In this document: positions 22,032 through 27,491 of the stretch, one piece after another
How positions within the stretch are numbered: the first letter of the stretch is position 1
How the letters are laid out: every line of letters begins with the position of its first letter
NCBI GenBank assembly: GCA_964493875.1
Contig: CAZBPT010000001.1
Coordinates: 53,020 to 104,506 of the forward strand
DNA from: an uncultured Bacteroidales bacterium
GTDB taxonomy: Bacteria; Bacteroidota; Bacteroidia; Bacteroidales; ML635J-15
Direction of reading: 5' to 3'
DNA length: 51,487 nt
Notes under the pieces: generated by a model
Database searches by the model: none
Seen by the model: the letters and a program-made list of their open reading frames with translations, nothing else
What the model was told of the DNA's origin: nothing
Made by a program: the position numbers and the translations under genes

Positions 22032-23228
22032 ATGATTTCAATAGATAATTACGATTTTAAAAACAAAAAAGTATTATTAAGAGTAGATTTTAATGTTCCT
22101 ATTATTGGCAATTGGGAAGAGTATGATTTCACAAGAATAAAACTATCCGTTCCAATAATTTTAAAAATTTTAACAGACGGTGGCTCTGTAATATTGCTCT
22201 CTCACTGGGGTCAGCCATTAGGAAAAGTTGAAGAAAGTCGCTCTTTCAAAAAAATTCTTCCCCATATTGAAAGAATTCTCAATGTGAAGAAAATATTTTT
22301 TTGTGAAAATCCTTTCGACCGTAAAACTGCTGAAACAGCAAAAAAATTAAAAAGCGGAGAAATTCTATTGTTGGAAAATCTAAGATTTTTTCCTGAAGAG
22401 ATAACAGAAAATGAAGAATTCGCACAATTATTAGCTTCTTTTGGAAATTGTTATGTAAACGATGCTTTCGGAGCATCTCACAGAGTTCATACCTCTACTG
22501 TTACTCTTCCAAAATATTTTCCATACGATAAAATGCTTGGCTACTCTTTTGAAAAAGAAATTACAAAACTCGACAACTTAATTATTGATAACAATAAAGT
22601 TCCTTTCACACTTCTAATTGGTGGAAATAAAATATCATCAAAAATTGGCGTTATAGAAGCCTTAATTACCAAAATCGACAATCTACTAATTGGTGGAGCT
22701 CTGGCATTCCCATTTTTAGCTGTATATGGCAATAAAACAGGAAATATTACTATTGAAAAGAAACATATCGAAACAGCAAAACGGATAATGAATTTAGCAA
22801 ATAAACACAATGTAAAAATTCACTTGCCAATAGATTTTGTTATCTCTGATGTTATTAGCGAAGATGGTAGTATTAGTCATTGCGAAAAGAGCGAAATTCC
22901 TAATGGTTGGTCGGCTCTTGACATCGGAATTAAAACAATTGAAAATTTTGTTGATGTCATTTCAAACTCAAAAACTCTTCTCTGGGACGGCCCAATGGGA
23001 ATGTATGAAATTCCAAATTTCTCATACGGTACTTTAAAAATTGCATTGTCAATTGGACGACTCACCGACAAAGGACTATTTTCAGTAGTTGGCGGCGGGG
23101 ACACTATCGCAGCGTTAAACAAATACAGCATCTCACACAAAATGTCGTATATAAGTTCCGCAGGTGGTGCTTTGCTAGAATACCTCGAAAAAAATTCTCT
23201 TCCTGCTATTGAGGCAATAAAAAAATCT
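22032..23228 (+). other. PGK unit 1 (divergent copy, 399 aa)
   Basis: SHWGQP replaces SHLGRP, YDFTRI replaces DDTRI, GGALAFPF replaces GGG..YTF, and WDGPMGMYE replaces WNGP.GVFE. Confidence 0.8.
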
Positions 23229-24422
23229 TTCGACATTGATAGTTACGACTTCAAAAACAAGAAAGCAATTATTCGTGTTGATTTTAATGTTCCTCTTGAC
23301 GAAAATTTCAATGTAGTTGATGATACCAGAATTATTACAGCCTCTCCTTCAATAAGAAAAATATTAACAGACGGAGGCTCTGTAATTTTAATAACCCACT
23401 TGGGAAGACCAAAAGGCAAATATGACGAAAAGTTGTCTGTTAAACATATTGTTTCTCATCTATCTCAACGATTAGGACAAGAAGTAAAATTTTCCGGAGA
23501 AATTATTGGTAAGAATACGACAAAAATGGCAAAAGAGTTGAAACCGGGTGAAATTATGATATTGGAAAATGTTCGCTTCGACCCTCGTGAAACTGAGAAT
23601 AACGAAGAATTTGCAAAAGAACTAGCCCAATTAGGAGATGTTTACATTATGAACGCCTTTGGAACTGCTCACCGTGCACATGCCTCTACTTATAATATCG
23701 CTAAATTCTTTCCAAAAGATAAAATGCTCGGATATTTAGTAGAAAGTGAAATAAATAGTATAAACAAAATTCTTCAAAGAGCCGAAAAACCGTTCACTGC
23801 TATTATTGGCGGTTCTAAAATATCCACTAAAATTAATATCATTAAAGCTTTAATTAAAAAAGTCGATTGTCTTATTATCGGTGGCGGGATAAGCTATACT
23901 TTTATTAAAGCCATGGGAGGCAGTATTGGCGACTCTCTTTTTGAAGAAGATTTCATTAAAACTGCTGAAGAAATTATTGAAGAAGCTAACAGATGCGGAG
24001 TAAAATTAATCCTACCTATAGATTGCATTATTGCGAATAAATTTGATAATAACGCCGATATCAAAATTTCTAAAATCACTCAAATTCCTGACGGCTGGCA
24101 AAGTTTAGACATAGGAATCAAAACATCTGAACTTTTTACAAAAATCATTGAAAATTCTAAAACAATTTTATGGAATGGACCTGTAGGAGTTTTTGAAATG
24201 GAACACTTCTGCAACGGAACTATAAAAATTGCATTGGCAGTTTCAAGAGCTACGGCAAAAGGTGCTTACTCTGTTGTTGGTGGTGGTGATAGCATTGCTG
24301 CTCTTAATAAATATAATTTGGCAGATTCTATCAGTTTTATATCAACTGCAGGTGGTGCTTTATTGGAATATATTGAAAATGGAGACCTGCCAAGCATTAA
24401 AGCTATTAGAACAAATATATAA
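22032..24422 (+). CDS. pgk: tandem phosphoglycerate kinase fusion (PGK-PGK, about 796 aa)
   Basis: One continuous frame holds two complete PGK units. RVDFNVP, ENLRF/ENVRF, NDAFG..HR / NAFGTAHRAH, GG.KIS.KI, W.GP.G..E, GGGD.IAA and AGGALLEY each occur twice. Confidence 0.9.
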   Translation: MISIDNYDFKNKKVLLRVDFNVPIIGNWEEYDFTRIKLSVPIILKILTDGGSVILLSHWGQPLGKVEESRSFKKILPHIERILNVKKIFFCENPFDRKTAETAKKLKSGEILLLENLRFFPEEITENEEFAQLLASFGNCYVNDAFGASHRVHTSTVTLPKYFPYDKMLGYSFEKEITKLDNLIIDNNKVPFTLLIGGNKISSKIGVIEALITKIDNLLIGGALAFPFLAVYGNKTGNITIEKKHIETAKRIMNLANKHNVKIHLPIDFVISDVISEDGSISHCEKSEIPNGWSALDIGIKTIENFVDVISNSKTLLWDGPMGMYEIPNFSYGTLKIALSIGRLTDKGLFSVVGGGDTIAALNKYSISHKMSYISSAGGALLEYLEKNSLPAIEAIKKSFDIDSYDFKNKKAIIRVDFNVPLDENFNVVDDTRIITASPSIRKILTDGGSVILITHLGRPKGKYDEKLSVKHIVSHLSQRLGQEVKFSGEIIGKNTTKMAKELKPGEIMILENVRFDPRETENNEEFAKELAQLGDVYIMNAFGTAHRAHASTYNIAKFFPKDKMLGYLVESEINSINKILQRAEKPFTAIIGGSKISTKINIIKALIKKVDCLIIGGGISYTFIKAMGGSIGDSLFEEDFIKTAEEIIEEANRCGVKLILPIDCIIANKFDNNADIKISKITQIPDGWQSLDIGIKTSELFTKIIENSKTILWNGPVGVFEMEHFCNGTIKIALAVSRATAKGAYSVVGGGDSIAALNKYNLADSISFISTAGGALLEYIENGDLPSIKAIRTNI
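23229..24422 (+). other. PGK unit 2 (canonical copy, 397 aa plus stop)
   Basis: Begins FDIDSYDFKNKKAIIRVDFNVPLDENFNVVDDTRI with no linker and no Met. Retains THLGRPKG, NAFGTAHRAHAS, GGGISYTF and WNGPVGVFE. Confidence 0.85.
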
Positions 24423-25325: not shown

Positions 25326-26354
25326 CTAATAATTATTTAACTTTGATTTATAATTCTCATTAAATTTTATCCAGTCAACTTGATTTTTATAATGATCTGC
25401 TCCGAAATAATCTAAAATTTTCTCTAGTACTATTGTAGGAACATATGCCCTCTGAATATTCAAAAGTTTAAAATCTTCATCAAAAAGCACAACAGCAGGG
25501 AATCTTAATTCCGGTTGTAACAACGCCAACACAAATTTATGCGGATAACCTTTAACTTTACCTTCGTTGGCAAATACTGCTCCATCAGGAAACGTTAATG
25601 TATCTTTCATGTCGTAATTGATTTTTACAGGATAATAATTATTATTTATATAATCTGCTATTACAGGATGTCTAATAGTGGAGCTCAACATTATTTTTGA
25701 GACATTACTATATTCCGAAGCTACAAATAAAAATATTTTTTTGGGATTTGTCTTCATTAATTCGATACAATCCTGGATATCAATCCAATTTATTTTTGCA
25801 GTAGTAATAGTTGTGGAATCTGCATAAAATGTATCTTTAAAATCACTATAAAACAACTGATAATCTGCTTGCTTATTTACTCTCTCTGCAAAATATATCA
25901 ATATCGGTTCAATATCCTTAACAGACATAAAACCGGGAACAGCTACGGGATTCCACTCATAATCTATATATACTATTGAAGGATATGAAAGACGAGAATT
26001 CAACATCTTTACTGCAAAGGTATTTGGCGATCTTTTTGTTCCCAAAGGAGATGGATTAAAAAATTTTTCGCCTTTATATTCAACAGTGTCAAAACCTTCT
26101 GCATCAAATTTTACAGGATAAAAATTAGTATTTATATATTCTGCAATAGTCGGATTTGTAAATGTTTCTGCATCCATCTTTTTACACCAGCCACACCACG
26201 AAGTGTACATGTCTATCATAATGGTTTTAGGATTAGTTTCTTGCAATTTAATGGCTTCCTGAATTGTAAGCCACTTTACACTCGAATTGTTAAGTTGTTG
26301 AGAAAAAAGGTTATACGAAACAAATAGCAATAATATAATCAAAATTTTTTTCAT
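25326..26354 (-). CDS. secreted thioredoxin-fold protein with two tandem domains (DUF255-like)
   Basis: I place the start at MKKILIILLLFVSYNLFSQQ (26354). The ORF-track extension to 26594 overlaps ribD and its promoter. Domain 1 has WCGWCKKMD; domain 2 is homologous but reads SEYSNVSKIM and has no cysteines. Confidence 0.75.
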   Translation of the reverse strand: MKKILIILLLFVSYNLFSQQLNNSSVKWLTIQEAIKLQETNPKTIMIDMYTSWCGWCKKMDAETFTNPTIAEYINTNFYPVKFDAEGFDTVEYKGEKFFNPSPLGTKRSPNTFAVKMLNSRLSYPSIVYIDYEWNPVAVPGFMSVKDIEPILIYFAERVNKQADYQLFYSDFKDTFYADSTTITTAKINWIDIQDCIELMKTNPKKIFLFVASEYSNVSKIMLSSTIRHPVIADYINNNYYPVKINYDMKDTLTFPDGAVFANEGKVKGYPHKFVLALLQPELRFPAVVLFDEDFKLLNIQRAYVPTIVLEKILDYFGADHYKNQVDWIKFNENYKSKLNNY

Positions 26355-26426
26355 AATAATATAACTACTTTTATTAATTTTTATTATGATATAAGTTAAT
26401 AATTTTGAATTTCTTTTATAATTTAT

Positions 26427-26434
26427 TAATTTTG
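26427..26434 (+). promoter_or_regulatory. putative -7 box (TAATTTTG) for ribD
   Basis: Lies 11 nt upstream of the ATG at 26445. Confidence 0.4.
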
Positions 26435-26444
26435 CAAAAACAAT

Positions 26445-27491
26445 ATGATACACGAAGATTATATGCAACGTTGCTTGGAATTGGCAAAAAATGGCTTCGG
26501 TAATGTTGCTCCAAATCCTATGGTTGGCGCTGTTGTTGTATTCCAGGGCATAATTATTGGAGAAGGGTATCATAAAGAATATGGCAAACCTCACGCCGAA
26601 GTAAATGCCATTAATTCTGTAAAAGATAAATCATTACTTAAAGATTCCACTTTATACGTTTCTCTAGAGCCTTGTTGCCATTTCGGAAAAACGCCTCCTT
26701 GCACCGATTTGATAATTAAATCCAAAATAAAAAATGTGGTTGTCGCAAGCATAGACCCAAACCCATTGGTACATGAAAATGGAATTGCAATACTTAAACA
26801 AGCAGGTATTAATGTAATAAGCAATATTTTAGAAAAAGAAGCAATATTTCTAAATCGCCGTTTCTACACTTTTAACTTGAAAAAACGTCCATATATTATT
26901 CTGAAATGGGCTCAGTCTTCCGACAATTATATAGATTCTATAAGGCACTCTGCAAAAGAAAAACCTGTTTATTTTATTGACAATTTTGGAAAAACATTGG
27001 TGCATAAAATGAGAGCAGAAGAGTCTGCAATCCTTATCGGCAAAAAAACAGCCTTACTTGATAATCCTTGTCTCACTTGCAGAAATTTCTTCGGGAAAAA
27101 CCCAACTCGAATTATTATTGACAGAAATCTCGAATTAGATAAAAATCTCAATATTTTCAATGACGAAGCAAAAACAATTATTTTTAATCTTATTAAAACA
27201 GAAAATAACAATAATCTGTCTTATATTAAAATTAATGATTGCAACAATATGATTGAAGAAATTAACAACAAGCTTTTTATGTTGGGAATACAATCTATAA
27301 TTATTGAAGGAGGAAACAATATTTTATCTCAATATATTGAAAAAAATTTATGGGACGAAGCAAGAGTTTTTACTTCAAAAACTATACTTGGCAAGGGCGT
27401 TCCTGCTCCTAAAATCGAAAAAAATCCAAATAATATTGAAATGATTAATAATTATTCCTTAAAAACTTTTTATAATGACGAACACAAATAA
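26445..27491 (+). CDS. ribD: bifunctional diaminohydroxyphosphoribosylaminopyrimidine deaminase / 5-amino-6-(5-phosphoribosylamino)uracil reductase
   Basis: Deaminase zinc motifs HAEVNA and PCCHFGKTPPC, followed by the reductase half, 348 aa. Confidence 0.9.
   Translation: MIHEDYMQRCLELAKNGFGNVAPNPMVGAVVVFQGIIIGEGYHKEYGKPHAEVNAINSVKDKSLLKDSTLYVSLEPCCHFGKTPPCTDLIIKSKIKNVVVASIDPNPLVHENGIAILKQAGINVISNILEKEAIFLNRRFYTFNLKKRPYIILKWAQSSDNYIDSIRHSAKEKPVYFIDNFGKTLVHKMRAEESAILIGKKTALLDNPCLTCRNFFGKNPTRIIIDRNLELDKNLNIFNDEAKTIIFNLIKTENNNNLSYIKINDCNNMIEEINNKLFMLGIQSIIIEGGNNILSQYIEKNLWDEARVFTSKTILGKGVPAPKIEKNPNNIEMINNYSLKTFYNDEHK

Follow-up and report, generated by a model that had tools for sequence, protein, structure and literature searches.

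A gene encoding two phosphoglycerate kinase units

We analysed a 51,487-nt stretch of DNA (hereafter the window) from an uncultured Bacteroidales bacterium (assembly GCA_964493875.1, contig CAZBPT010000001.1, positions 53,020 to 104,506), focusing on a gene on its forward strand (22032..24422) that encodes a complete 796-amino-acid (aa) tandem of two phosphoglycerate kinase (PGK) units. The reading frame runs without interruption from an ATG at 22032 through 796 codons to a stop codon at 24420-24422. The longest open reading frame (ORF) begins further upstream at a TTG (21984), and the homologues begin at ATG 22032, which we took as the start because M1 is nearly invariant in the homologue alignment. 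Two full-length Pfam matches to PF00162, both spanning profile positions 1-377/379 (cut-off 27 bits), divide the protein into a divergent unit 1 (residues 1-399; 22032..23228, +; 396.9 bits) and a canonical unit 2 (residues 400-796; 23229..24419, +; 485.2 bits). At the junction (23205..23252, +), the sequence can be read directly as ...PAIEAIKKS followed by FDIDSYDF..., with no linker between the units. A first-pass annotation of the window had already described two full PGK units joined without a linker in one uninterrupted frame, and both statements hold.

Aligned with each other by BLASTP, the two units share 197 of 394 residues (50%; E = 6e-140). At the DNA level they are 59% identical, the longest exact match being 15 nt. 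Where the residues are identical, the third bases agree at a rate of 0.53, as compared to 0.50 expected from codon usage alone; the synonymous sites have thus reached saturation, and the halves are the product of an old duplication and not of an assembly repeat, as had been surmised from units roughly half identical in protein and clearly diverged in DNA. The same 796-aa protein, with the same kdsB gene upstream, is also present on an independent Logan assembly of run SRR8925805.

No triosephosphate isomerase (TIM) domain was detected by Pfam in the protein. The sole NCBIfam model matched was NF010569 (PGK/TIM equivalog), with a score of 869.3 below its cut-off of 883; this match is restricted to the PGK part, its best stretch covering positions 6-392 of the 645-position model. 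NCBIfam holds no model for a PGK-PGK tandem. We conclude that the gene encodes a covalent tandem dimer of PGK.

Distribution of the tandem family

A search of 5.8 billion clustered proteins yielded more than 120 clusters of ~794 aa that have the same architecture and align to the window protein with 55-84% identity and 100% coverage. Named clusters are labelled simply 'phosphoglycerate kinase' and derive from Bacteroidales, Marinilabiliales and Bacteroidota metagenome-assembled genomes (MAGs). Using GTDB with one genome per species, we found 498 stretches encoding a relative. The best 80 of these 498, which are the loci described here, all cover residues 1-79x and all originate from uncultured Bacteroidales/Bacteroidota MAGs, one of them a complete 4.6-Mb chromosome (OY762280.1); the MAG names of these fusion carriers point mainly to digesters, sediments and groundwater. 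Since even the best GTDB relative (L001) is only 72% identical, the organism of the window has no close representative in that database. Two of the related MAG loci contain a single in-frame stop, located in unit 2 of L001 (L001:4404-6797; KFFP*DKMLGY) and in unit 1 of L018 (L018:6001-8385; SSAG*ALLEY), each representing either a consensus error or a real inactivation.

Cultured Bacteroides, Parabacteroides, Phocaeicola and Prevotella carry single-unit PGKs that are 44-46% identical. In a library clustered at 50% identity, the tandem family collapses to essentially one full-length representative (P0067), and among single-unit PGKs there, the best reaches 42-46% identity with unit 1 and ~50% with unit 2. 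The nearest single PGKs are those of Bacteroidota, namely of Blattabacterium cuenoti and a Flavobacteriaceae MAG.

The spacing of the two units is conserved, with a distance of 396 aa from one RVDFNVP motif to the other in 91 of 120 family members (range 395-402). None of the 120 family members revealed a conserved Met near the junction, and a conserved internal start yielding a free unit 2 was rejected on this ground. As family hallmarks, both units carry G394A and S398L (STAGGALLE instead of the canonical STGGGAxLE) as well as T or S at D218; residue numbers refer to human PGK1 throughout, based on a 417-aa reference in which every named residue matched the expected letter. These hallmark sites touch residues implicated in hinge signalling, and the STAGGALLE-type motif is hinge-proximal. 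In the window protein, the motif reads SSAGGALLE in unit 1 (23157-23183) and STAGGALLE in unit 2 (24345-24371). Collinear homology, unit spacing, the absence of a linker, the hallmark occurring twice and the placement inside the clade all assign the window protein to this family.

Our full-text searches of PMC and bioRxiv found no paper describing PGK-PGK fusions. Likewise, the portion of the 2020 PGK review considered here (PMC7729029) mentions no PGK-PGK tandem, and the terms 'PGK domains' and 'Bacteroid' are absent from the review. The architecture is common in databases and apparently undescribed in the literature. The first-pass annotation had named a common and characterised architecture as a finding that would speak against its reading; the first half of this description applies to the fusion, whereas for the second we found no describing paper.

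Active-site residues of the two units

To give an overview of the active sites, we audited all units of the 120 family clusters, which comprise a main clade (95 clusters) and a subclade including the window (25 clusters), together with 139 single PGKs. Throughout the main clade (95/120 clusters), D23, N25, R38, H62, R65, R122, H169 and R170 as well as K215, K219, N336, E343 and D374 are intact in both units. Unit 2 of the window protein is fully canonical in all 3-phosphoglycerate (3-PG) and nucleotide/catalytic site residues and in its glycine loops, and the same applies to all C-terminal (C) units of the family (120/120). Its motifs DDTRI, THLGRP, AHRAH, GGGISYTF and WNGPVGVFE read as previously quoted, and so do YDFTRI, SHWGQP, GGALAFPF and WDGPMGMYE in unit 1.

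Unit 1 of the window protein keeps D23, N25, R38, H62, R122, H169, R170, K215, K219, E343 and D374, and carries R65Q, T167A, A214N, G238A, T242P, L256T, G312A, N336D and V341M. Its 3-PG basic patch (R38, H62, R65, R122, R170) is incomplete, with Q at position 65 and the other four residues present. The catalytic residues K215, K219, E343 and D374 are all in place, and Asn336 is missing, with Asp in its stead. Three of the altered codons, all on the forward strand, are those for Q61 (human R65 position; motif SHWGQP; 22212..22214), N199 (human A214 position, adjoining the catalytic K215; motif GGNK; 22626..22628) and D319 (human N336 position; motif WDGP; 22986..22988).

Several of these changes are shared by the 25 clusters of the subclade, whose N-terminal (N) units are monophyletic in 100% and whose C units are monophyletic in 93.5% of bootstraps. 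The C units are fully canonical and the N units are altered: N336D and S375T occur in 25/25 of the latter, T393S in 24/25, G312A in 21/25, and A214 is replaced by D or N in 24/25 (D 17, N 7, S 1; S or A elsewhere in the family). By comparison, N336 is kept in 95/95 main-clade N units, 120/120 C units and 130/139 single PGKs. Position 65 is far less uniform in its change, with R in 106, Q in 3 and S in 1 of the N units of the family, and R in 21, Q in 3 and S in 1 of those of the subclade. In addition, unit 1 of L001 reads SHWGHP (R65H).

We further counted changes at 124 alignment columns that are ≥97% invariant in the rest of the family. Subclade N units deviate at 12-35 of these columns (26 in unit 1 of the window protein) and subclade C units at 0-7 (6 in unit 2 of the window protein), as compared to a mean of 0.5 in main-clade N units. 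The earlier description of unit 1 as degenerate is therefore appropriate for the window protein (26/124 versus 6 positions changed), but not as a trait of the fusion, since 95 of 120 clusters keep all sites in both units; we accordingly rejected a degenerate unit 1 as a family-wide feature. The most pronounced case is the sister protein P0014, whose unit 1 shows R65Q, R122G, H169N, R170Y and H172Y (raw motifs THWGQQ, LIENLGF and FGAANYNY). Judging by these residues, unit 1 of P0014 is predicted to be unable to bind 3-PG canonically, yet the unit is retained.

Significance of the substitutions

Among the altered positions, N336 is the most informative one. Its NH2 group contacts the ADP β-phosphate (PMC2441801). 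Domain closure is said to require it along with R38, K219 and E343, and the signalling route proposed to lead from ADP to the hinges passes through it, just as the route from 1,3-bisphosphoglycerate passes through T393 (PMC3900376). N336 has been reported to be present in all eukaryotic and prokaryotic PGKs, and its exchange for Ser was about as damaging as K219S in both growth and kinetics (PMC3723536). Because of this reported universality and the damage caused by N336S, we regard N336D as the strongest sign that unit 1 is no longer a normal PGK. The change was visible in the first-pass annotation as WDGP without being singled out there; the emphasis lay instead on the lost Arg of the HLGRP motif (R65Q).

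According to PMC7729029, in the portion considered here, R65 and R170 stabilise the closed form through salt bridges with D218. We found D218 replaced by T or S in both units family-wide and in 67/139 single PGKs. In addition, a crystal structure of the yeast R65Q mutant is available in the PDB (1qpg). Since R65Q occurs in only 3/25 subclade clusters, its D218 partner is replaced across the family and 1qpg exists, the substitution is the weaker evidence for loss of function. It is thus present as claimed, but with four of five basic-patch residues remaining we downgraded it as the key lesion in favour of N336D, which is found in 25/25 subclade N units.

Selection and rate asymmetry

For close pairs within the subclade with unsaturated dS (0.5-0.9), unit 1 has a dN/dS of 0.07-0.10, whereas that of unit 2 is 0.02-0.04. 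Dividing unit 1 dN by unit 2 dN gives a median of 1.64 in the subclade versus 0.95 in the main clade, and the rate of evolution of subclade unit 1 exceeds that of unit 2 by a factor of 1.6-2.9. Unit 1 thus experiences strong purifying selection under a constraint that is different from, and looser than, that on unit 2, and it is no decaying pseudogene.

Predicted structure

The AlphaFold2 (AF2) model of the window protein shows PGK topology in both units, with a mean predicted local distance difference test (pLDDT) score of 81.5 and a predicted template modelling score (pTM) of 0.65. Unit 1 is modelled with PGK secondary structure at a pLDDT mostly >80 apart from its C-terminal end, and residues 376-401, which form the C-terminal helix of unit 1 and the junction, fall below 50. 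The model of the main-clade protein P0034 reaches a pLDDT of 90.9 (73-85 at the junction) and a pTM of 0.67. Using Foldseek, one unit superposes on bacterial PGKs with a TM-score of up to 0.94 (3q3v), and the best PDB match by sequence is 1vpe (E = 3e-91). Both chain termini of a PGK sit in the N-domain. For this reason, and because there is no linker, the tandem should place two 3-PG-binding domains side by side.

Origin and evolution of the fusion

The neighbour-joining tree that we constructed (200 bootstraps) comprises 34 diverse fusion proteins, represented by their 68 units, as well as 30 single PGKs and other multi-PGK proteins. In 99.5% of bootstraps, the fusion units all group in a single clade apart from the single PGKs. 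Within the clade, neither the N units nor the C units as a whole are monophyletic (0% of bootstraps each). Instead, several lineages have their N and C units grouped by protein or protein group, as in P0026 (100%) and the P0043/P0108 group (85%). Across the family, the two units of one protein are between 46% and 80% identical. Simple divergence after one duplication, which predicts reciprocal monophyly of N and C units, was rejected on account of this 0% bootstrap value.

An example of a possible homogenising event is found in L046, where a 133-nt tract is identical between the units (L046:7007-7139 and L046:8198-8330) at the same position in both (nt 1012), while elsewhere the protein identity of the halves drops to 57%. 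The tract looks like a recent intragenic gene conversion. Across the whole family, the subclade of the window included, some residues partly discriminate N from C units, although a strict search for diagnostic N-versus-C columns found none in the family. Repeated independent duplication appears less likely than gene conversion because no single-unit member was seen in the clade, residues discriminating N from C units are shared across the family, and the L046 tract exists. A single in-frame duplication in an ancestor, with episodic gene conversion within the gene thereafter, is the most economical reading of these comparisons. According to this scenario, the ancestor of a large uncultured clade of Bacteroidales would have duplicated a Bacteroidota pgk once, head to tail and in frame, whereby the stop codon and the start codon of the second copy disappeared, and the halves would afterwards have been partly homogenised by occasional gene conversion.

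The tree also indicates that tandem PGKs arose independently elsewhere. A second tandem family of ~798 aa (P0123 and P0303-P0308; seven clusters), of which P0123 originates from ENA metagenome contigs of up to 358 kb, branches outside the Bacteroidales clade, amid other single PGKs. In P0123, the two units are sisters in 100% of bootstraps, both canonical, and 73% identical to each other.

Further multi-domain PGKs were encountered in these searches. In mollusc gene models from Bulinus truncatus (P0129) and Aplysia californica (P0133), there are 2 to 3.5 PGK-like repeats whose catalytic residues are mostly substituted (K215Q/E, N336Y/S/C/T, R65T/H/E); these may be dead PGK-repeat proteins or merged gene models. 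Metagenomic PGK fusions among P0314, P0336 and P0345-P0349 combine PGK with a methyltransferase (PF13649/PF08241; ~660 aa) or with TIM (PF00121; ~655 aa).

Genomic context

The neighbours of the tandem gene are housekeeping genes. Upstream, on the opposite strand, lie rnhB, a GT4 glycosyltransferase gene and kdsB; the NAD kinase gene nadK follows 18 nt downstream, succeeded by genes for a thioredoxin-like protein and ribD. The upstream genes kdsB, GT4 and rnhB are common only to the closest relative L001, and nadK is not conserved downstream. A conserved operon partner was consequently ruled out, as the neighbours vary among relatives. The number of promoter-like sequences in a sigma-70 scan barely differed from the shuffled expectation, and the terminator scan had no hits. 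Within the whole 51-kb window (1-51487), no Rfam family reached its gathering score, and there were no tRNA, rRNA or riboswitch matches. The GC content of the window is uniformly ~30%.

The ORF of the thioredoxin-like protein, as predicted from a GTG start (25326-26594, reverse strand), overlaps the start of ribD (26445-27491, forward strand) by ~150 nt. Its true start is probably an internal ATG near 26360, which we prefer because the Pfam matches of the thioredoxin-like protein fall in the part translated from there.

Function of the two units

We propose that unit 2 of the window protein is the working enzyme and that unit 1 is a catalytically weakened but retained partner, a reading to which we assign a probability of about 0.58 on the basis of residue patterns and rates. 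In most of the clade, complete active sites in both halves would yield a PGK with two predicted active sites. In the subclade of the window, unit 2 would keep the ancestral enzyme and carry the glycolytic and gluconeogenic PGK reaction, while unit 1 is altered at residues that bind the nucleotide phosphates and couple binding to hinge closure (N336D, A214N/D, G312A, T393S). In the organism of the window, unit 1 additionally lacks one arginine of the 3-PG patch (R65Q). We infer that unit 1 is weakened catalytically and heading towards a pseudo-enzyme, and that it is kept by selection, probably owing to a structural need of unit 2 or to regulatory ligand binding. That its catalysis may be dispensable is suggested by P0014, in which unit 1 has lost R65, R122, H169, R170 and H172. 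The earlier proposal of a pseudo-enzyme tethered to an active PGK is therefore upheld in part, for the subclade of the window only, where N336D is its main support, and a free decay of unit 1 does not agree with its dN/dS of 0.07-0.10. The present analysis shows the architecture and how it is distributed, the residue patterns, the difference in rate and the purifying selection; what each unit catalyses and why unit 1 persists are inferred from these.

A number of points weigh against this proposal. Unit 1 of the window protein retains R38, H62, R122, H169, R170, K215, K219, E343, D374 and its glycine loops, and could therefore still catalyse. Asp336 might bind phosphate through Mg2+ rather than repel it, and R65Q alone need not inactivate the enzyme, given the yeast mutant structure 1qpg; yeast R65 mutants reportedly retain activity and lose anion activation. 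Strong purifying selection is as compatible with a working enzyme as with a structural role. Moreover, the trees are neighbour-joining trees only, and the pTM values of 0.65 and 0.67 leave the packing of the units against each other unfixed.

Alternatively, both units may be fully active and the protein a two-site enzyme, in which the changes in unit 1 only tune kinetics, for instance turnover, activation by anions, or whether glycolysis or gluconeogenesis is the favoured direction. We consider this somewhat unlikely. Most catalytic residues of unit 1 are indeed kept, purifying selection on it is strong (dN/dS 0.07-0.10), the yeast R65Q mutant could be crystallised, 95/120 clusters are fully canonical in both units, and the independent P0123 family is canonical at both sites. 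However, N336D is fixed in subclade unit 1 at a position reported to be universal, where exchange for Ser is about as damaging as K219S; position 214, adjoining K215, has turned acidic or polar; P0014 retains unit 1 despite the loss of R65, R122, H169 and R170; and unit 1 outpaces unit 2 in its evolution by a factor of 1.6-2.9.

More doubtful still is a newly acquired function of unit 1 in the subclade, by which it would either use another phosphoryl donor or acceptor or sense a ligand to regulate unit 2. The changes N336D, F342Y, S375T, T393S, G312A and A214D/N are common to the subclade, where they are fixed, and they concentrate in the nucleotide-phosphate site and along the closure pathway; such a fixed pattern, combined with a dN/dS of 0.07-0.10, resembles a shift of constraint more than a relaxation. 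On the other hand, there is no positive evidence for an alternative ligand, the gene neighbourhood gives no hint, and the 3-PG site erodes differently by lineage (R65Q, R65S, R65H, R122G + R170Y), which resembles loss rather than redesign. The broader idea that unit 1 serves as a non-catalytic ligand-binding regulatory or scaffolding module, or as an altered-donor kinase, and thereby controls the tethered active PGK, is a tentative one.

Finally, an assembly or sequencing artefact at a locus that really holds two adjacent pgk genes is hardly credible: although the in-frame stops in unit 2 of L001 and unit 1 of L018 indicate that errors or breaks occur in related MAG loci, the same ORF is found in the independent assembly of SRR8925805, collinear full-length homologues number in the hundreds and stem from different projects, the distance between the units is conserved with neither a start codon nor intergenic sequence at the junction, and a repeat collapse cannot make the fusion because the halves are only 59% identical in DNA.

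If unit 1 of the subclade has indeed become a regulatory or scaffolding module, or an altered-donor kinase, that controls the tethered PGK, the lineages alive today would span all stages between a two-site enzyme and an enzyme-pseudoenzyme tandem. Within the family, a graded natural series runs from both sites intact, through N336D fixed in one and the loss of R65, to the loss of the whole 3-PG patch; it could serve for studying how one half of a duplicated enzyme becomes a pseudo-enzyme and how two hinge-bending units behave when tethered. On the practical side, annotation pipelines label the tandem proteins only as 'phosphoglycerate kinase'. Our knowledge of glycolysis is unchanged by these findings.

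Comparison with known systems

PGK is a textbook example of a monomeric hinge-bending enzyme, and its natural covalent tandem is the form that occurs throughout a large uncultured Bacteroidales clade. Each ~397-aa unit is like the monomeric bacterial PGKs of Thermotoga maritima (1VPE), Campylobacter jejuni (3Q3V) and Geobacillus stearothermophilus (1PHP). The window protein differs from these in comprising two units in one chain without a linker, in carrying G394A, S398L and D218T/S in both units, and in the N336D and R65Q of unit 1 in its own branch.

The forms of PGK described in the 2020 review, in the portion considered here, are monomers, archaeal dimers and tetramers, PGK-TIM and the kinetoplastid PGK-like proteins (PMC7729029). 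The Thermotoga PGK-TIM protein (fus gene; NF010569), as outlined in that portion, is likewise a PGK fused C-terminally to a glycolytic enzyme, but the fusion partner in the window protein is a second PGK and not TIM. The archaeal homodimeric and homotetrameric PGKs of Pyrococcus woesei and Methanothermus fervidus (same portion of PMC7729029) also bring at least two PGK units into one functional particle; they do so non-covalently, with identical subunits and a link to thermoadaptation, whereas the tandem is covalent and its halves have diverged.

A parallel to the altered unit 1 is provided by the 'dead' PGK-like isoforms of kinetoplastids, described in the same portion of PMC7729029 as retained and presumed non-catalytic, with substituted 3-PG or catalytic residues. 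Unit 1 of P0014, and to a lesser extent that of the window protein, resembles these isoforms, which differ in being eukaryotic, encoded by separate genes or fused to non-PGK domains (such as PAS and HTH), and untethered to an active PGK. The P0123 family, in turn, shares the linker-less PGK-PGK architecture, but has a separate origin and two canonical units.

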